Notes: generated by a model not told the origin, from the sequence alone. Counted from the stretch's first letter, positions 1 to 9,435 are shown. The stretch is 13,996 bases of DNA from Pseudomonadota bacterium (GCA_043767805.1 JAYUGC010000072.1:1-13996), one strand, 5' to 3'. A program made the numbers and translations.

Positions 1-46
1 GGTTCGCGGTCTGGTTGTTCGTGGTTGATTTGAGCTGTTTTGGGTT

Positions 47-72
47 GGGATGTTCCCAAAATGTTCCCATTT
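47..72 (+). repeat. 26-bp direct repeat, copy 1 (GGGATGTTCCCAAAATGTTCCCATTT); probable integrase arm-type site pair
   Basis: Exact match to 7062-7087. Contains TGTTCCCA twice with an 11-bp period. Confidence 0.8.
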
Positions 73-91
73 TCTGTTGGATCGGGCGGAA

Positions 92-139
92 GAGGGATAG
101 GCGGTATTAACGTGCATTCTGGAAGGCGCCTAATAGCCA
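92..139 (-). repeat. oriIS-like end A', exact 48-bp copy of 3822-3869
   Basis: GAGGGATAGGCGGTATTAACGTGCATTCTGGAAGGCGCCTAATAGCCA is identical at both sites. The minus strand ends ACGTTAATACCGCCTATCCCT. Confidence 0.85.
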
Positions 140-226
140 AAGGGAACGGTCTCTAGAGGGTCACATAACGTCGATAACGGCGCTTGAGAGCCGAAGGCAA
201 ATCTAGCGTTTGTCCTGCCTATCCAC
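140..226 (+). repeat. oriIS-like end B', 87-bp copy of 3279-3365 (one mismatch)
   Basis: 86/87 identity (C178 vs T3317). Ends GCGTTTGTCCTGCCTATCCAC, with a GCC-GAA-GGC mini-hairpin at 190-198. Confidence 0.85.
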
Positions 227-286
227 GCTCAGCTATCAAACCAGACGCCGTTACGCCTTCATGGATTACGTTCCTCAAATCCCCGT

Positions 287-430
287 GTGGATAGGCAATT
301 TAGCCGCATGATTTTGTGAACGCTGGCCTGCGGGGAGAACTCTTTTTATACGACGGAGGCGAGGGGATCACCTCTACCATGTTATTACCTCTACCAACCC
401 AAAAACCGGGCTGGCCGGGCCGGGGTCGGC
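287..430 (-). mobile_element. diverged oriIS-like tail C, with no transposase attached
   Basis: The minus strand ends GCGGCTAAATTGCCTATCCAC. Internal GTAGAGGTGATCCCC (363-377, minus) matches GTAGAGTGATCCCC at 3231-3244. Patchy similarity to the transposase 3' tail extends to ~430. Confidence 0.65.
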
Positions 431-543
431 CGCGGACTTCGGTCTACGGAAAGTCGACGCGAATCTTTCCGCAGTTAAAACATTTGACGGTGCCTTTGGC
501 CGTCAGTTTGACCTCGAAAGCTTAAGAAGCGACGGTTTGTCGC

Positions 544-670
544 TTATAGGAAAGCGACTGTCCGTTCGAAGCGGCATCTAAATGTTGAAGCTGGCCTGAA
601 ACCGAGGCAAAATTGGGGTTTTCAAGAAAGTACGGGCCCGAGGCTACTAAAACGCTGACTGCCTATAGAC
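544..670. other. candidate second back-to-back ori doublet (D/E), degenerate
   Basis: TATAGG at 545-550 and CCTATA at 662-667 face outward. The right end has a GCC-CGA-GGC hairpin (636-644) followed by CTGCCTAT, as in end B. Positions 571-598 resemble 303-330 of tail C. Confidence 0.35.
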
Positions 671-708
671 TGTTTTTTTGCATCGCTCGATCTTTAGGAG
701 ACTTTTTA

Positions 709-2547
709 ATGAATACCTCTCGACTGGCTCAGGGCACATTTTGGTTACTTTTCTTACTTGGGTCCATCGGCAGGCATTCGGTTGGTGAAACAAGGTCTCC
801 CCGTCCATACCCCACTGTTTCTCCGAATCCAATGCCAACCGCTCCCCAAATCCCAATCTCGCCAAGTCCGATTCCCGGGGCAAGCGTGTCTCCAACCCCA
901 CCCAGTCCGAATCCAAAACCACCCGCGTCTCCAAGCCCAACCCCAGCAATTCACGGCTGTTCTAATGGAAGCTGCGTACCAGGGGGGCGAGGTGTGTATT
1001 GCCAATCAGGGGACGATACCCCGTGTTTGGTAAAGCGATGTGACGATAGTGGAGTTTGTTCGTTAGGAGGTACAAAACAGGGGTGCGCAACTTTCGCAGA
1101 TTGTAAGTTGGGTTGCAGTACCGAGGGCCAGTGTGTTCCTGGGGGAACGAAGGGGAGTTGTATAACTGGGCGTGATTGCCAAGTCCTTCGATGCCACAGC
1201 AGTGTCCAAGGCCAAGAGTGCATTTTAGGAGGCGAAGGGCGCCCCTGTCTGGATAGAAATGACTGTAATCACTCCACCTGCGGAAATTTCATCCAAGAAT
1301 GCTTGCCCTCTTATTATCCTTCCGCGTCCAATATTGAGTGTCAAAACGATGCTGCCTGCGCCATTGTAACCAACAGATGCAGCACTGACGGGACTGCGCA
1401 GTGTCTCCCTCCACCCGCGCAGCAAGGAGCTCCTTGTCAAACGGACGATCAGTGTGGCGGCCTTCGGTGCACTGGATACGTGTCACGTGGAAAGACCTGC
1501 AAAACCGATGGTGCCACGTGCACTAAAAACGAGGATTGCCAGTTTTATCGCTGCAATAAAGGCAAGTGCACGATGGGGAGCAACTACTATGGGCGCCCCT
1601 GTTCCGGTAATTCAGAATCGGGGTACGAGGAGTGTCAGGCTTACACTTGCGAGGACTTAAATCCGGGAAACGGAGAGCTCAGTAAAATAGTTTGTGTGAT
1701 TAATCACGATGGGCCGGCAAGTGCCAAGCCGTGCGATCCAAAGGCAGACAATCCCTGTGGCCACAAAGTGTGCTCCTCGGGTCAGAATGAGGGGGAATAT
1801 ACTTGCATTAACGGCCCAGGAGCCGGTCACGATGAATGCAAAACGGCTGATGACTGCCCTTTTGTCAGAAAAACCTCGGATGACGAACGACGGGCCAATT
1901 CCACGCGTCCACCAAATTCTCCTCATTTTGCCAGCGCTGGAATTGGTCCTTTCGCAGGAAATGAAGCCGAGAAACCCGAAGTCGCTATCAGGCTATTAGG
2001 CAAGCTCGATGGCCCGCGGCCAACTCTAGGGAAAAAGACGGCACCGGTGCACATGTACCTGTTTCAGGATCTAGCCTGCGGAATGTGCAAGAATTTTTAT
2101 AGAAAGACGATGGCTGAGTTTGAAAAACTTTATCTTAGTAAGGGCAAAGTTTATCTGACTTTCGTGGAGTTTCCTCTGGGGATGATGGCTGGCAGCACGC
2201 GACTTGCCGAGACCGCACTCTGTGCAAAGGACGAGGGGAAGTACGAGCAGTTTTTGAAGCTTGATTTGGAAGATGATGCCAATACGGAAGATTTCAAAAT
2301 CGCGGAAGCGCGGGTGAAGGTATACAAGAAAAAATTGGGTCTCAATTCAGCCAGATTCAATTCTTGTTTGAAAAATCACAAATACCTGCCGCTAATCAAG
2401 GAGGGCTTCGAAATCGGGGAAAAGCTCCAAGTACGCGGAACGCCGAGCTATTTTATAAATGGGAAATCCAAGGGGGGAACGAAACCCTTCAAAGATTTCC
2501 AAAAACTCATCGAAGAAGCCTTGAGCGCCGAACAAACTCGGAGTTGA
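709..2547 (+). CDS. secreted cysteine-rich repeat protein with a C-terminal DsbA-like (thioredoxin-fold) domain
   Basis: AGGAG RBS precedes ATG709, preferred over the TTG at 613. The protein has a hydrophobic signal peptide, a Pro/Ser linker and ten 4-Cys repeats (958-1857). These are followed by TLGKKTAPV...FQDLACGMC and VRGTPSYFING, typical of DsbA/Thioredoxin_4 domains. Confidence 0.85.
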   Translation: MNTSRLAQGTFWLLFLLGSIGRHSVGETRSPRPYPTVSPNPMPTAPQIPISPSPIPGASVSPTPPSPNPKPPASPSPTPAIHGCSNGSCVPGGRGVYCQSGDDTPCLVKRCDDSGVCSLGGTKQGCATFADCKLGCSTEGQCVPGGTKGSCITGRDCQVLRCHSSVQGQECILGGEGRPCLDRNDCNHSTCGNFIQECLPSYYPSASNIECQNDAACAIVTNRCSTDGTAQCLPPPAQQGAPCQTDDQCGGLRCTGYVSRGKTCKTDGATCTKNEDCQFYRCNKGKCTMGSNYYGRPCSGNSESGYEECQAYTCEDLNPGNGELSKIVCVINHDGPASAKPCDPKADNPCGHKVCSSGQNEGEYTCINGPGAGHDECKTADDCPFVRKTSDDERRANSTRPPNSPHFASAGIGPFAGNEAEKPEVAIRLLGKLDGPRPTLGKKTAPVHMYLFQDLACGMCKNFYRKTMAEFEKLYLSKGKVYLTFVEFPLGMMAGSTRLAETALCAKDEGKYEQFLKLDLEDDANTEDFKIAEARVKVYKKKLGLNSARFNSCLKNHKYLPLIKEGFEIGEKLQVRGTPSYFINGKSKGGTKPFKDFQKLIEEALSAEQTRS

Positions 2548-2572
2548 CACTGTACGGGCAAACGGTCGCCGG

Positions 2573-3201
2573 TTAAAGCCAACCGCAAATGCGGAGAAAT
2601 CGGCTCAGCAAAATACCGCCGTTGCTTGAAGGTGAGGGGGCGCGATTGCCCAAAGCACTCGGGAGAGGCAGTTTTTTCAGCCGCTTGTATTGCTCCGGAA
2701 TGTGGCGGTGGAGAGCGGCGTAGAAGGCTCGCTGGTTCTTGGCGTCGGGAAACTTGCGCAGGGCATTGGCGACCGAGCCGAAAAGGAACTCATCTCCCAG
2801 GGTTACGATCTCCTGTTTGTTGCCCTGGGTATCCTGGATGGAAATGCGATAGTTTCCGTCTCCCGTAGGCTTTACGTTCGGGTCGTTAGGAGAAGGCTTG
2901 CGCAAGAGTCGGTTGAGAAGATCGGGCGTGTTGGAGAGCTTCTGCTTCACGAAACTCTCGTCCCCTTTAAGCTCCGTGCCGCGAACCCGGTGCTGCTCGG
3001 CAACGAGCTTTCCGTTTGTCGGCTTGAGGGACTTGGAGGAATGAGCCTTCTGAACTCAACTTCCGGCACCTGCATGGCATCTCGCGGTAGGGTCATCCCG
3101 GCCGCTCCGAAAGCATTCTCAGGCTTGAGCTCGTCGTCCGCAAGGGACGCGACCGACGTTAGTAGCAAAACGAGACACCAGATGACACTGAATCGTTGCA
3201 T
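2573..3201 (-). pseudogene. probable secreted protein gene split by a frameshift near 3050 (ORFs 2947-3201 and 2573-2950)
   Basis: GAGGGG RBS and signal peptide MQRFSVIWCLVLLLTSVASLA. The downstream ORF's frame stays open back to ~3055 (QKAHSSKSLKPTNGKLVAEQ...), while the first ORF degrades into a Ser-rich tail. Two coupled genes (GTGA overlap) remain possible. Confidence 0.5.
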
Positions 3202-3229
3202 TTGTGGACCCCTCAGTCAGCGCGGAGTC

Positions 3230-3365
3230 CGTAGAGTGATCCCCGCCGTCCCCGGCCCAATCCGCGCGCCCTTTTCGGAAGGGAACGGTCTCTAGAGGGT
3301 CACATAACGTCGATAATGGCGCTTGAGAGCCGAAGGCAAATCTAGCGTTTGTCCTGCCTATCCAC
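3230..3365 (+). mobile_element. oriIS-like tail B (fuller copy), no transposase attached
   Basis: Ends GCGTTTGTCCTGCCTATCCAC. CGTAGAGTGA at 3230-3239 is the inverted copy of 3934-3943 in the transposase tail. An extra TATCCAC follows at 3366-3372. Confidence 0.75.
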
Positions 3366-3821
3366 TATCCACTTTGATATCTCTCGAAGTCGGCATCGAA
3401 TTTTGGCGCTCGCCTGAGAAATCATTGCTGAAGCAATTTCATCTTTAAGTAACCTCATCTCGCTGTCATCCAGGTGAAGAATGACCCCTTGGGAAGTTGG
3501 TTCGGCGCAAAATAATAGGCTTTCGATTTCGGGCTCATATTCGAATTCTTTGCGAAGAAATCTATATTGAGATTGGGTAAAAGAAATGCGTTTCGAACTC
3601 CCTTCTCTTCCTTTTTTCTCTGCCCAAGAAAAATTCCACGGAATATTTGCCCAGCCTCTGATTTCACCGCTCTCGCCGCAATCGGAGCATGACCAACAAA
3701 CCAGTTCATGTGATTTTTGGAGAATGACTTTGATATAGCCCGAACAGAGTCTCCTCTTGGGTCGCCTGCGGCACCGAAGGGCCGTGAGGATTGCGGTGTC
3801 TTTGTTAAGGGCGGTAGCGGC
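3342..3821 (-). pseudogene. 5'-truncated gene for a putative zinc-ribbon protein, not in the ORF track
   Basis: A stop-free frame of ~160 codons reads AATALNKDTAILTALRCRRRPKRRLCSGYIKVILQKSHELVCWSCSDCGESGEIRGWANIPWNF...REISKWIVDRQDKR*. It has no start codon, and the frame closes inside ori A just above 3830. Confidence 0.65.
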
Positions 3822-4013
3822 GAGGGATAGGCGGTATTAACGTGCATTCTGGAAGGCGCCTAATAGCCATAAATTCAAATATCAGCAATAAACCCACAGA
3901 GCCGCTTATGGCGCAGTGGCCCAACTGCGGACTTCACTCTACGATGGAATATTAAGCGGTAGTTTTGCCTGTTTTGGGGAGCCTGGACGGACGGGTCCAT
4001 TGCGTCAGCGGTT

Positions 4014-5476
4014 TCAATCGAAAGACGCTTGGTAAAACTCGTCGGTTTCGGCGGGCGGCACTTCGAACATCGCCATCTGTGGTGGGGCTCGTGGCGGAAA
4101 AAGCTGTGGCGCCTCAGTTGGAAGGCCCAAATGACCACGAACGGCTCTTCGACATGGGAAACGAACCGCATCTTCCCGCCACACGAAGCGCACGCCATGA
4201 TATCGATAGAAAAGGATCTCTTTAAGAGATCCGACCAACTCCGGTTCGGGCGCTCTTGTCTCCCTTCAGCGGATTCACTAGGGGATCCCGGAACTATCCT
4301 TTTTCTATCTTTGAAATTCGGGGCAAAGACCCCGTGGTATCTGAGTAGGTTGGCTCTCGGCGGTGGAATGAGCGCGACCACCTTCTCGACAAGTTCCATG
4401 GGATCAAAGAGCACATGGGTCGTGCCATCGGAGTATTGGGTCTTTAACCGGTAGAGGATTTTCCCATCCTCGGTTTCGCTCAAACGCTCCAGCGCCACCG
4501 GCGGGCGGGCCGTGTAGCGGCAGAGCTTTTCCAACTTATCTCGGTCTTTGCCGTCGATTTTGACGTTGGCGTGAAGGCTGAACCCGTCGCAGACGGAGCA
4601 TCGGTTGCCTATACGGTAAACGTCTCCTTTGGAAGCATCATTGCCAACACGTCTGACTTTTTGCCCAGCTCGTTCTCCCAGAGCTATCCGACTTTGAATC
4701 GAGGCTCCCGTGAGCTCTGCCATGGCCGGCTGCTCAAAGGCAAATGGGCCTTCGGAAAAATCATCGATGCTGTAGCCCTTCTTGGTTAGATACCGAACGA
4801 CTCGATCCCGAATTCGTTGAACCAGAACGGCAATCTCATCTTCCGAAGGATCCGGGACGCGGAAGAATTTCAACTTTCCACGGTCCTCAAAGTACACGCC
4901 GTCCAAGAAAAGGCTATGGAGATGCACGTTGAAATTTATCGCCCCCCCGAACCTCTGAACGAAGGTAATGGCCCCGGTTTTGCCCTGGACCCCCTGTCGT
5001 CTGGCGCGCTTCACGATAGAGTTTGAGACGGTGCGGGCAAAGATTGCGAGCACCCCCGTTACGAGATGGGCCTTATAGGCCAGGACGAATCGGACGGAGA
5101 ACGGGAACGAAATTACCCATTGCCGGATCGAAACGTGCGGGATGACGGAGTCCACCAGGTGGGCCGCCACTTCGTTCATCCGCTTTCCGCCACAAGAGGG
5201 ACAGAAGCCTCTTTTTTTGCACGAGAAGGCGACAAGGCGTTCATCCTTACACGACCCGCACCGCAGGCGAATAAAGCCGTGAGCCAAAATCCCGCAGCGA
5301 AGGTAGGCGTCGACCTACTGGTGGACGTGGCGAGGGAGCGAGACCCGTTCGGGGTCCCTTTGGGAGGCGGCGAGAAAAGTCTCAAAGTTCTCCTGGACCG
5401 CTCGGTACAGAACCGAGCGCTCGGGCTCATGGCGAAAATACCGGGTCGAAAGCGCTGCTGAGAACGAGGAGGCTAC
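4014..5476 (-). pseudogene. IS91-family (ISCR-like) HUH transposase, inactivated
   Basis: Zn-binding RCGSC...SCKKRGFCPSCG, HUH motif NVHLHSL, catalytic LCRYTAR and RYHGVFAPN are present. The N-terminus YFRHEPERSVLYRAVQENFETFLA is cut off by an in-frame TAG at 5315-5317. A frameshift near 4135 puts the natural C-terminus HLGLPTEAPQLFPPRAPPQ...ASFD* (stop 4014) in another frame. No ATG/GTG/TTG lies upstream in frame. Confidence 0.9.
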
Positions 5477-5536
5477 CCCCTCCCTTCAATGCAATGCCCT
5501 CGACCTATGCTGGGGCTTGGGAACTGAACGCAACGC

Positions 5537-5551
5537 GGCCGGGAACCGGCC
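5537..5551. other. perfect GC hairpin GGCCGG-GAA-CCGGCC; candidate terIS structure
   Basis: 6-bp stem ~60 bp upstream of the transposase 5' region, with GAAC/CTTG tetranucleotides nearby. Confidence 0.35.
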
Positions 5552-5715
5552 TTGAGCGGCCAAAATTCGATTCTGGACAGGGACGGGATGGGCGGTTGCG
5601 TCGATGGGCTGGTAAGGCCTGGACGCCCAATACGTGAGAGCGAGCACGACGTCTCTTTTCCCGGCTACCCTTTTCGCAACGGCTTTGTGGGGATGGCAGG
5701 AGGGAATCTACAGAA

Positions 5716-5731
5716 CCCGGATTGCTCCGGG
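5716..5731 (-). terminator. possible terminator hairpin for the TA-like operon
   Basis: Minus strand CCCGGA-GCAA-TCCGGG with a GNRA loop, ~22 bp after the 5754 stop. The U-tail is weak (TTCTGT). Confidence 0.4.
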
Positions 5732-5753
5732 GTCAAGCTTGGATGAGCAGGGC

Positions 5754-6053
5754 CTAAGCGGCCCTCAGTTGAATCCGTGTTCCCGTCGCCGCGATAATTT
5801 TAATAAGCAGATCACATGATACGGATACGGTGGCCTCGTTTTTTACTGCCGAGACCTTGGACCGCGCTACACCCGAGAGTTTAACGATCTCGTTGACACC
5901 CAGATCCGATTCTCGGACGGCTTTGGTGGCAATCTCGGAGAGTTCTGCCTTGTATTTCATCAACGCGATATCACCCTTCGAAAGCCCAAGAATCTTGCCC
6001 AACTCTTCCGGGTTATGGGTGACAGCGTGTTTGGTCTTATTTCTTTTCTTCAC
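5754..6053 (-). CDS. XRE-family HTH protein (HigA-like antitoxin)
   Basis: 99 aa with an HTH segment LGVNEIVKLSGVARSKVSAVKN and a VSCDLLIKII tail. GGAG lies upstream of the GTG start. Confidence 0.75.
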   Translation of the reverse strand: MKKRNKTKHAVTHNPEELGKILGLSKGDIALMKYKAELSEIATKAVRESDLGVNEIVKLSGVARSKVSAVKNEATVSVSCDLLIKIIAATGTRIQLRAA

Positions 6054-6078
6054 GTTTACCTTTGCTCCCTAGTCCTTT

Positions 6079-6384
6079 TCACTGGGCAATCTTAAACTGC
6101 ACCTTGGGATTGATGGTTTCGTTATAGGTGATGAGCTTATCCGTCGAGACTTTGTCGATTCTATGATTAACGATCTCGCTGACTCGTGCCTGATCGATGC
6201 CGAGAAGACTTGCGAAGTCTACTTGGGACAATTCCTTTTCAACCATGTGACGCACCAGATTTTGGCAAAGATCCCACCGGAATCGATCGATCGGAGGGGA
6301 GCTGGGGCCAACCATCACGGTTCCCTGGACGTTCTTCAGCTTTTTGTCCATCTCCGCTAATTTTTTCTTGCTCGGGTAACGCAT
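6079..6384 (-). CDS. XRE-family HTH protein, putative antitoxin
   Basis: LSQVDFASLLGIDQARVSEIVNHRIDKVSTDKL is an HTH. An AGGAG RBS overlaps the restored upstream stop. Confidence 0.85.
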   Translation of the reverse strand: MRYPSKKKLAEMDKKLKNVQGTVMVGPSSPPIDRFRWDLCQNLVRHMVEKELSQVDFASLLGIDQARVSEIVNHRIDKVSTDKLITYNETINPKVQFKIAQ

Positions 6385-6387
6385 CCT

Positions 6388-6686
6388 TTATCTCCTATAG
6401 GCGTTGGCGATTCCAACGAAGAGTTCTTTTTCATGAAGCAACAAATCAACTTATAAAAGCGCCCATCTAGTTCCATGTGGTCGTTCACGAAATACTGGAA
6501 ACCGTCTTCATCCACATCCACATCCGCTGCCCGGAAGCTCTTGCCATCGAGAAGCTTGACCAAAGTAAGAATAATCTCGTCGCTCACTGACTCCGCATGC
6601 TTCTCCTCGTAGTGAGGGTCAATGAGGACACTCTCTAGTACGCGCCCGTTGATGACTAGGCTGGTTGGGTAAACTCGGCGACTCAC
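6388..6686 (-). pseudogene. putative type II toxin (RelE/BrnT-like RNase), frameshifted near 6442
   Basis: Restoring one G (ATT TG[G] TTG) gives ...[22 protein letters not shown], with a stop at 6388-6390, 3 nt before the antitoxin ATG. The gene is ~100 aa and lies upstream of an HTH gene. Confidence 0.6.
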
Positions 6687-6702
6687 AAAGGAAGCTTAGC
6701 AG

Positions 6703-6724
6703 ATCTTGCAATATATTGCAAGAT
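6703..6724. promoter_or_regulatory. 22-bp perfect palindrome ATCTTGCAATATATTGCAAGAT, likely an antitoxin operator
   Basis: Exact palindrome 16 bp upstream of the toxin start codon. Confidence 0.75.
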
Positions 6725-6819
6725 TGAGGGCTTCGGGTGGAAGCGAAATTGCACACCTTAGTCTGCCTGGCCGAGTTTGAGGCTGGGAGTATAGGGAAGG
6801 GATCGATGAGGGCTGGAAG

Positions 6820-7125
6820 ATGCTCGATTATTGGATGTACCGCAAAGTTCTGAAGCAGTACTGCCAGGAGGCGAAGGTGGCGGTCATCGCGACCCACGGT
6901 CTACGCCACTCGACGAGTGAGCTGTACCAGACCTACGGCGCAAGCCGCGACGATCTGCGGCAGCTTTTCGCTCACTCATCCGTGAGTACGACTGAGAGAT
7001 ACATCCATCGAAAGAGTGACAGTTTGGGAAAAGTGGCGAAGGTGATCCAGTTGTTTCCCACGGGATGTTCCCAAAATGTTCCCATTTCAAACGCGGATTC
7101 GAAAGGAGGCACTATAACTAGCTAA
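6820..7125 (+). pseudogene. C-terminal fragment of a tyrosine recombinase/integrase
   Basis: THGLRHS (HxxR), FAHSS and TTERY (catalytic Tyr) are present. An in-frame TGA lies at 6778-6780, and the N-terminal two-thirds are absent. Confidence 0.85.
7062..7087 (+). repeat. 26-bp direct repeat, copy 2; probable arm-type sites
   Basis: Identical to 47-72 and 45 bp from the tRNA 3' end. A degenerate third unit (TGTTTCCCA) lies at 7052-7060. Confidence 0.8.
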
Positions 7126-7132
7126 AATTAAT

Positions 7133-7206
7133 TGGGCCCAGTTGGATTCGAACCAACGACCCCCAGATTAGAAATCTGGTGCTCTATCCGACTAAGCTAT
7201 GGGCCC
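7133..7206 (-). tRNA. tRNA-Arg (anticodon TCT); CCA not encoded
   Basis: GGGCCCA acceptor stem, D-arm TAGCTTAGTCGGATAGAGC, anticodon arm CCAGA-TTTCTAA-TCTGG and T-arm GTTGG-TTCGAAT-CCAAC. Confidence 0.96.
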
Positions 7207-7374
7207 TCAAAAAGAAGGACCCACAGAATAGCGGGCTGCCCCAGAGAATCAAGGTTCACCTCACGTCGATTATTTTCAGGCGGAACACTTGCTGCGGGGG
7301 CAGCTCTCATGCCCCGGATTCTACCGCGACCGAACCCCTTTCAACCGCCGCCCCGCCCCGGTTAAGATAACTCC

Positions 7375-8437: not shown

Positions 8438-9435
8438 ATGGTCCCAAATTTCTTGAAATTAGCCGTGGTTGGTCTCTTGGTTTCCGTGGGCCTCCAGGCC
8501 GCGGATCTCAAAGTCGGTTTGGTTCTCGATAAGGGCGGCCGGGACGATAAGTCCTTCAACGCCGCCGCCTTCCGGGGCGCGACCGACGCTCAGAAAAAGC
8601 TCGGCATCCAGCTCAAAGTGGTCGAGTCGGGAGACGACACCGCCATCGAGCCGAACCTCCGCACCTTCGCTCAAAAGGGGTACGACCTCGTCATCGGCAT
8701 CGGCTTCGTCCAAGGGACGGCGCTTGCGAAAGTCGCCAAAGAATTTCCGAAGACCCATTTCCTTCTCGTGGACAATCTCCTCGAGCTTCCCAATGTCCGC
8801 TCGGTCATCTTCAAGGAGCACGAAGGCTCTTATCTCGTGGGCGCCATCGCGGCCCTCACCAGCAAGACCAACACCATCGGTTTCGTGGGCGGCATGGACA
8901 TCCCGCTCGTCCGCCGTTTTGAAATGGGTTACGCCGCCGGCGCCAAAGCCGTGAATCCCAAAGTCACCGTGCTGACCAACTACATCGGCAGCGGCTCGGA
9001 TGCCTGGAAGAACCCCATGAAGGGCAAAGAGCTCGCGCTCTCTCAGTACAACAAGAAAGCCGACGTGGTCTTTCACGTGGCGGGCGCTTCGGGGCTCGGC
9101 ATTTTCGATGCCGCCGAAGAGACCAAGAAATTCGCCATCGGCGTCGACTCGAACCAGAACTGGATTAAGCCCGGCCGCGTGCTTACCAGCATGATCAAGG
9201 GTGTCGACGTCGCGGTCTATAAGACCATCGAAGAGCTTAAAGCCGGTAAGTTCGCGCCCGGCAAGTTCAGCATGGGATTTGCGGAAAACGCCATCGACTT
9301 CGCGCTCGACGAGCATAACCGCGCCATTCTCACTCCCGAAGTGGAGAAGCGCGCGAACGCGCTCAAAGCCGACATCATCTCGGGCAAGATCAAAGTGCCC
9401 GATCTGTACGAGCTGAATAAGAACAAGAAGTCCTA

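Follow-up and report, generated by a model that had tools for sequence, protein, structure and literature searches.

The stretch of DNA considered here is the whole 13,996-base contig C72 (JAYUGC010000072.1) of a bacterial genome assembled in 204 contigs (G000); it is called the window throughout, and positions are counted from its first letter. The window carries one decayed member of the IS91 family of insertion sequences, of the ISCR-like kind, at approximately 3822–5640 on the minus strand, together with four further copies of the origin (oriIS) end of such elements that have no transposase gene attached. These orphan ends, which belong to three lineages, are not random scars but discrete, sharply bounded units, and similar units are abundant in the same bacterial family. 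Below, an oriIS end is referred to as a "tail"; it runs from a CGTAGAG motif on its inner side (the "box") to the CCTATCC end (the terminus). Tail types A, B, and C are named by sequence, and the direction given to a tail is that of its terminus. The left part of the window is laid out as follows.

92–139, minus strand: A1, orphan fragment of an A-type oriIS end (48 nucleotides [nt]; terminus at 92–94; inner side cut off, without box).
140–226, plus strand: B1, orphan fragment of a B-type oriIS end (87 nt; terminus CCTATCCAC at 226; inner side cut off, without box).
227–286: spacer of 60 base pairs (bp) between the facing termini of B1 and C; single copy in the genome.
287–448, minus strand: C, full-length orphan tail of the C lineage (162 nt; box CGTAGAC at 448; terminus CCTATCCAC at 287).
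449–3229: DNA of about 2.8 kb between the inner (box) sides of C and B2, with a gene at 709–2547 (plus strand) and two minus-strand open reading frames (ORFs).
3230–3365, plus strand: B2, full-length orphan tail of the B lineage (136 nt; box CGTAGAG at 3230; terminus CCTATCCAC at 3365).
3366–3821: spacer of 456 bp between the facing termini of B2 and A2; holds the ORF 3455–3847 (minus strand).
3822–3943, minus strand: A2, oriIS tail of the resident insertion sequence (box CGTAGAG at 3943; terminus at 3822).
4014–5473, minus strand: transposase pseudogene, IS91 family, ISCR-like, identified by Pfam domains and homology to the relative L003.
5474–5650, minus strand: upstream (terIS-side) part of the insertion sequence, identified by homology to the upstream regions of L003 and a further relative, L024.

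Two direct repeats found by a repeat finder in the window connect these ends: 92–139 equals 3822–3869 over 48 nt (48/48, 100%), and 140–226 matches 3279–3365 over 87 nt (86/87, 99%). Since two pairs are near-identical, the five termini represent three sequence types. The heptamer CCTATCC occurs five times in the window, every time within 95–3831; the chance expectation is 1.14 ± 1.02, and five occurrences were reached in 2 of 200 shuffles. The initial annotation had described five termini on these strands, with three 21-nt end strings, and had proposed at least three related lineages of ends, all of which the window confirms. Matches to a profile of tails (nhmmer) span model positions 1–131 for both C (E 3.2e-16) and B2 (E 4.4e-26), while A2 scores 7.6e-19, B1 5.5e-11, and the short A1 0.13 over model positions 76–131. 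The C type forms a separate lineage, aligning with tails approximately 144 nt long in three relatives (G014, G197, and G186), and the flanks are unrelated. It also holds an internal 16-nt duplication that includes GGTAGAG (363–377). GTAGAG boxes had been noted at 3230–3239 and, on the minus strand, at 3934–3943 and 363–377; these positions are correct, but 363–377 is not the inner box of the C tail, the true limit of which is at 448.

The outer flanks of A1 and A2 are unlike, as are those of B1 and B2, and we read the five ends as separate events. A1 and B1 are fused back to back at 139/140. Neither a box nor microhomology is seen at this joint, which most plausibly represents the scar of a later deletion or rearrangement. 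An origin of the joint by circular permutation or tandem duplication was also considered and dropped; the adjoining DNA is unlike 3366–3821.

As judged by sequence, the window termini are true oriIS-side ends of IS91/ISCR-like elements on three grounds: A2 is located downstream of the transposase, intact homologous transposases are followed by the same tails, and the ends align with those of ISCR1 and ISVsa3. In the intact element L003, the CGTATAGAG box is found approximately 70 nt past the stop codon and is followed by a 136-nt stretch that aligns with the B type and ends with CCTATCCAC. A2 is likewise positioned approximately 70 nt past the true stop of the transposase frame. More generally, tails of the A, B, and C kinds are present downstream of the transposase in L003, L004, L024, and L028. 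The origin ends of ISCR1 and ISVsa3, read from two plasmid records, have the sequence ...TTCCTATAC about 210–235 nt past the stop and were aligned with the ...(G/C)CCTATCC end of the window tails; CCTAT.C is invariant in 7/7 aligned ends (the three window types, two intact relatives, ISCR1, and ISVsa3). The initial annotation had called these oriIS-type ends downstream of a transposase, a view that hinged on their alignment with the oriIS of intact homologues; they do align, and the view stands. In all nine relatives with at least 58% identity, TT(A/T)ATATTC precedes the CGTA... box, approximately 70 nt past the stop. The orphan tails start at the CGTA of the box and do not have the preceding TTAATATTC part.

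The resident element is assigned to the IS91 family, and as ISCR-like, because its transposase ORF carries the Pfam domains Y2_Tnp (6.5e-28) and Zn_Tnp_IS91 (3.2e-12), in line with the Y2 HUH transposase and N-terminal zinc-binding domain of this family, and because the transposases of ISVsa3 (ISCR2) and ISCR1, its nearest named relatives in a plasmid collection, are 44–45% identical to it over 385 residues. The ORF at 3875–5287 (minus strand) is part of a pseudogene at approximately 4014–5473, the true frame of which ends near 4014. The encoded protein is about 77–79% identical to the intact 501-amino acid (aa) L003 protein, with residues 2–453 aligned, and it has three lesions: the start codon is missing at the homologous place, there is an in-frame TAG, and the frame changes near 4133–4142. 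This pseudogene is the sole Y2_Tnp match of the genome, in addition to which there is a 76-aa transposase fragment on another contig (C180). Thus, the single transposase counted in the initial annotation is indeed the only Y2-transposase gene of the cluster, but it is decayed. On the terIS side, homology with L003 and L024, including the palindrome GGCCGGTTCCCGGCC, fades at approximately 5540–5640. The palindrome is conserved in the upstream regions of relatives and a YCGA(A/T) motif is present in 4/6 of them, without pinning down the left end. Comparison of two copies within one genome fixed no left end either: the copies in G006 are just 66% alike, and those in G104 (81%) belong to a distant subfamily without CCTATCC.

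The orphan tails are units of approximately 120–160 bp that extend from the CGTAGAG box to CCTATCC. A search of the genome with the tail profile, which favors full tails, gave at least 13 tails at E<0.01, plus A1 at E 0.13; a covariance model gave 12. Five of the matches are on C72 and two to three on C180, while C92, C115, C29, C177, C193, C127, and C110 have one each. The limits of the units were scored on tails pooled from this genome and eight relatives (nine genomes). On the inner side, all tails whose match reaches the first model position (34/34) open with CGT(A/G)NA(G/A/C), directly preceded by a pyrimidine (22 C, 12 T) and, further out, by unrelated flanks. On the origin side, the second base beyond CCTATCC is a pyrimidine in 44/44 scored ends (T in 36); these bases belong to the target or to the element. 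In 26 tails with both flanks available, the longest flank repeats are at most 3 nt, equal to those of randomly re-paired flanks, and there is thus no target-site duplication. In keeping with this, the tails do not look like miniature inverted-repeat transposable elements, as they have neither matching inverted ends nor flank duplications; the A1/B1 pair imitates inverted ends solely through the fusion of two origin ends. When three 520-bp queries covering tail loci of G186 were compared with three genomes of the same genus, the match was confined to the tail.

Public contigs from three runs of one study give an additional view of these limits. They part from the window exactly at 3228/3230, 3365, and 3944, the last position being the point of divergence for four contigs in run X2 and two in run X3. 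One public contig extends upstream of 3230 by ...TTAATATTCCCT, which is the context of an intact element, i.e., the B box joined to the motif found in intact elements. In two of the runs, a contig joins sequence ending at 73 to 3849 via 38 other letters that contain a variant ...GGATAGG... end. This is a diverged A-type origin end inserted a few bases from the A1 site, in another strain or locus.

The distribution of transposases and tails was compared among relatives. With a threshold of E≤1e-20, 44 of the 301 phylum genomes have transposase matches; within the family, the figure is 10 of 33. A covariance model built from 13 tails was run on 34 family genomes and detected tails in 16 of them. 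Genomes with their tail and transposase counts include:

G182: 23 tails; one transposase match, partial.
G186: 16 tails; no transposase match.
G197: 9 tails; five transposase matches.
G014: 7 tails; one transposase match, partial.
G010: 6 tails; no transposase match.
G005 (8 contigs): 4 tails; no transposase match.

The genome to which the window belongs has at least 13 tails versus one transposase pseudogene and the 76-aa fragment. These tail-to-transposase ratios are upper estimates because metagenome assemblies tend to lose repeated transposase genes. By hand count, approximately 41 of the 91 tails in the 16 family genomes have a neighboring tail less than 5 kb away on their contig, and in 12 of 17 multi-tail contigs all tails point in the same direction. 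One-direction arrays with a spacing of 1.5–5 kb are found on G005:C6, G182:C297, G182:C130, and G186:C117, and three 99%-identical tails lie within 7.3 kb in G005. The initial annotation had suggested building a profile of the ends and scanning the genome and its relatives for clusters of transposase-less tails; such tails turn out to be common, clustered, and surrounded by unrelated flanks. A second cluster in the genome of the window, at G000:C180:100-3073, consists of a truncated B-like tail (100–189), a full A-like tail (2677–2800), and a box-only fragment (3018–3073). It also holds the 76-aa transposase fragment (1101–1328), on the other strand.

Fragments of host genes adjoin several tails. 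On C92, the box adjoins the first 48 codons of a CoA-transferase gene, an intact copy of which is present on C14 (89.6% identical at the protein and 80% at the DNA level); the DNA past the origin end is not the remainder of this gene. In G005, a 3′ fragment of purA is 89.5% identical to the resident gene, and a further 200 bp of downstream DNA are 86.5% identical, while the resident locus is intact elsewhere. This fragment spans the interval between the box of one tail and the terminus of the following tail, to within one base of the latter, and is broken by a 4.4-kb insertion. The insertion (G005:C6:675483-680923; L056 5483-9923) lies directly after the stop codon of the copied fragment and contains two minus-strand ORFs resembling an insertion-sequence transposase pair, and two large ORFs. 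On C193, the 3′ end of the neighboring AcrB-type gene is present as a copy of 362 bp (85% identical) that begins right at the tail terminus. Among 24 ORFs adjoining tails, four have a Pfam family (CoA_trans, ACR_tran, Peptidase_C25, and Adenylsucc_synt), and no gene cleanly split by a tail was found in this set. Because the limits of the gene fragments coincide with tail ends, these sequences point to transposase-made joints, with read-through capture and adjacent deletion as undistinguished routes. Other repeats were seen in this context. Just past the termini of the C92 and C29 tails there is a repeat of approximately 115–150 bp that corresponds to the 5′ part of a small opposite-strand gene and is present in at least five copies. 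A further repeat begins with GGCTCTACTCCACCAACGGGG and on C92 comes after a tRNA gene. These repeats, located at G000:C92:3560-3900 and 9080-9209, G000:C29:29909-32943, and G000:C123:18764-18859, are separate mobile or island-linked sequences.

Taken as a whole, we read the window as one decayed ISCR-like element plus four transposase-less copies of oriIS ends from three lineages, the orphan tails being miniature non-autonomous derivatives produced by rolling-circle events; we give this reading a probability of roughly 75%. In the proposed model, rolling-circle transposition would start at the CCTATCC end and stop at an internal terminator-like site (a pyrimidine followed by CGTAGAG) 120–160 nt inside the element and not at terIS past the transposase gene. 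The released unit would then insert elsewhere without target duplication. The tail would retain what is needed in cis to start again whenever a related transposase is supplied in trans, and read-through of the box would lead to a tail carrying neighboring DNA, i.e., one-ended transposition. In the window, the full tails C and B2 could in principle start one-ended transposition, given a related transposase. The gene fragments adjoining tails would be the footprints of such rolling-circle, one-ended movement. A bolder version of the model, which we put forward as tentative and would not expect to hold in full, is that the tails constitute a self-standing non-autonomous rolling-circle family, a bacterial counterpart of non-autonomous Helitrons, in which the box is a programmed terminator that sets the length, rare ISCR-like transposases move tails in trans, and read-through builds one-direction arrays of captured DNA plus tail.

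Several observations weigh against interpreting the orphan tails as miniature rolling-circle derivatives. A1 and B1 do not have a box at their start, and there is no intact transposase in the assembled genome. The likeness between box and terIS rests on a short common YCG(A/T) motif seen in 4/6 upstream regions, with terIS itself not fixed. Empty sites were found neither for the C115 tail, where a 2-kb region gave no match in 20 relatives, nor for the three G186 loci, so that insertion of a tail is not directly seen. A consensus fold of the alignment of A-type and B-type tails gave no structure, and the subterminal stem at the origin end is weak (at least 5 bp in 5/15 tails, none in 3/15); two hairpins near the box of A-type tails were noted by eye. 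Moreover, the tails on C92, in G005, and on C193 have the interrupted or copied gene on just one side, and further events (read-through capture or adjacent deletion) must therefore be assumed.

Parts of this model have precedents in excerpts of published work. For IS91, the terminal 82 bp on the origin side, together with the flanking tetranucleotide, are reported to suffice; the origin region has one or two subterminal palindromes, and a palindrome in terIS is next to the cleavage tetranucleotide, CTCG; the second target position is T, and termination fails in 1–10% of events (PMC13181058, in excerpt). In the case of IS801, 26% of trapped events were origin-end pieces (229, 360, or 679 nt) with a left-end-like tetranucleotide at their boundary, and co-mobilisation of gene fragments was also reported (PMC3189936, in excerpt). 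Plasmids with one to eight ori801 have been described, any ori801-containing fragment is considered potentially mobilizable, and one-ended events delete DNA (excerpt of PMC6354349). Together, the ori-end derivatives of IS801 and the sufficiency of the 82-bp origin of IS91, as far as these excerpts go, offer a precedent for reading the tails as miniature derivatives. Neighboring DNA is also moved by rolling-circle, one-ended transposition of ISCR1 and ISVsa3 (PMC12772301, PMC13181058, both in part), and an ISCR28 remnant with one extra oriIS upstream of a gene and a second oriIS after it is said to capture the gene in between (part of PMC12772301, citing Yuan et al.). Non-autonomous Helitrons have only their termini in common with their autonomous counterparts and acquire gene fragments upon failed termination (PMC4778049, in excerpt).

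Compared with these systems, the window elements show both likenesses and differences. They share with ISCR1 and ISVsa3 the transposase identity given above, the placement of the origin end, and the CCTAT.C end itself, whereas the host belongs to a different phylum, there are no resistance genes, and the window tails form a discrete multi-copy family; by eye, the plasmid copies of ISCR1 and ISVsa3 have no evident CGTAGAG box. Like the IS801 derivatives in the excerpted reports, the tails are transposase-less pieces that keep the origin end and begin at a short left-end-like motif; the IS801 pieces are mobilisable in trans, as is proposed for the tails. However, the IS801 pieces measure 229–679 nt and, in those excerpts, are mostly not fixed families, whereas tails of the window type measure 120–160 nt, have one conserved box, and reach 23 copies per genome; unlike IS801 pieces, they also persist in genomes without a transposase match to this query. 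The one-direction arrays in G005, G182, and G186 resemble the ISCR28 arrangement, as excerpted, while the alternating tails of the window do not. The transposase here has Y2 and zinc domains, in contrast to the RepHel protein of Helitrons, and the likeness to the latter is one of description. With respect to miniature or non-autonomous IS91-family elements, the open-access literature searched held nothing closer than the IS801 derivatives and ISCR28. In this light, the cluster is less of a novelty than the initial annotation took it to be: orphan ori ends and miniature derivatives are already described for IS801, and two-oriIS capture for ISCR28 (PMC3189936, PMC6354349, PMC12772301, in the parts available). 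New here are the box-delimited, sharply bounded tail family and its abundance in this bacterial family; the pattern is otherwise mostly known.

The initial annotation proposed that the alternating cluster may be a gene-capture or shuffling platform, in which orphan origins bound cassettes mobilised in trans. In its full form, this would be a working platform on which a transposase acting in trans picks up and moves the cassettes as units, comparable to cassette handling by an integron. The clustering of tails in the family, the one-direction arrays of G005, G182, and G186, and the copied purA segment of G005, which fills the exact space from the ori end of one tail to the box of the next, speak for such a platform, as does the two-oriIS "sandwich" reported for ISCR28 (PMC12772301, citing Yuan et al.; in excerpt). 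In the window, however, the tails alternate, an arrangement that is atypical among multi-tail contigs and unfit for origin-to-origin units: the only same-strand origin-to-origin segment is 227–3365 (B1 to B2), and the opposed C tail lies inside it. Cassette movement is not shown in the window because the inter-tail DNA has no second copy in the genome (blastn and tblastx) and no DNA counterpart in 30 relatives; gene fragments with limits that coincide with tail ends are seen elsewhere (the C92, G005, and C193 fragments). There is also no dedicated recombinase and no recurrent cassette structure. The repeats that bound the segments are IS91-type origin ends, not the attI/attC sites of an integron, and an integrase remnant of 101 aa, from the C-terminal part, is the sole tyrosine-recombinase signal. 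With no recurring segment, alternating directions, and no assembled transposase in working order, the window does not demonstrate a functioning platform. Target preference, or the build-up of tails in dispensable island DNA, would produce clustering just as well. We consider a platform of this kind unlikely.

Still less probable is that each tail was left behind by deletions in a full-length insertion sequence of its own that decayed at its site, so that tails never moved as short units, which the initial annotation had named as the outcome that would speak against its proposal. Irregular cutting of A1 and B1 and their box-less joint would fit such decay, the resident transposase is visibly decaying, and a retrospective analysis ascribed most IS801 fragments in P. 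syringae genomes to reorganisation (PMC3189936, in excerpt). The fixed inner limit argues otherwise: random deletions would not share an end point, yet 34/34 full-length tails from nine genomes have the same start nucleotide. In addition, 99%-identical tails are present at three sites in G005, a genome without a transposase match, and tails far outnumber transposase remnants. The least probable explanation, to which we assign a very small chance, is that the cluster is in whole or in part an artefact of the metagenome bin, with the 48- and 87-nt repeats wrongly joined. The assembly does comprise 204 contigs, the A1/B1 joint is made of two repeats, and none among the public contigs listed bridges 139/140. 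Yet independent contigs of the three runs cover 197–3257 and 3336–3851 without differences, both repeats are below the usual final word sizes of assemblers, and many other genomes have tails with the same limits.

The DNA between and beside the tails is strain specific. The gene at 709–2547 encodes a secreted protein of 612 aa, in which a Pro/Ser-rich start is followed by Cys-rich repeats over approximately 350 residues; a thioredoxin domain of the DsbA-like type (Pfam Thioredoxin_4, 7.3e-24, residues 470–635) lies at the C terminus. In 33 family genomes, relatives were found only for the thioredoxin domain (at most 33% identity), while the Cys-rich part had no match. Another orphan Cys-rich secreted ORF adjoins the C193 tail. 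The minus-strand ORFs at 2573–2950 and 2947–3201 have no family, nor is any assigned to the ORF at 3455–3847, which starts within the A2 tail. To the right of the insertion sequence, 5754–6686 (minus strand) holds two adjacent small HTH_37 genes, coding for 99 and 101 aa, and an ORF of 109 aa to which no family is assigned; this set may be an antitoxin-type or island-regulator module. The integrase remnant follows at 6820–7125, beside a tRNA-Arg gene at 7133–7206, and this tRNA is the only Rfam match at gathering thresholds in 1–7300. A perfect 26-bp direct repeat, GGGATGTTCCCAAAATGTTCCCATTT, is present at 47–72 and 7062–7087, and also at G000:C113:50116-50138. The copy on the right falls within the 3′ end of the integrase remnant, at a distance of 45 nt from the tRNA-Arg gene; the repeat may be a sign of tandem islands or of the ends that related integrase genes have in common. 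Several relatives match bases 1–70 of the contig at 85–92%, and public contigs branch at 82. The tails are thus situated in strain-specific DNA close to the tRNA-Arg gene and the integrase remnant. The window itself is mostly ordinary, i.e., island debris of a known kind of element.

IS91 and ISCR elements have mainly been studied as carriers of resistance and virulence genes in Proteobacteria, and definitions of their ends, termination rules, and mode of capture are still poor. The related lineage described here, from environmental bacteria of a predatory type, offers natural substrates for understanding what stops a Y2 transposase and how one-ended capture occurs. For annotators, the 120–160-nt repeats flag DNA that may be mobilisable even where no transposase gene is present. 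If the bolder model is true, read-through arrays next to origin ends would assemble accessory islands from gene fragments of other hosts across this bacterial family.

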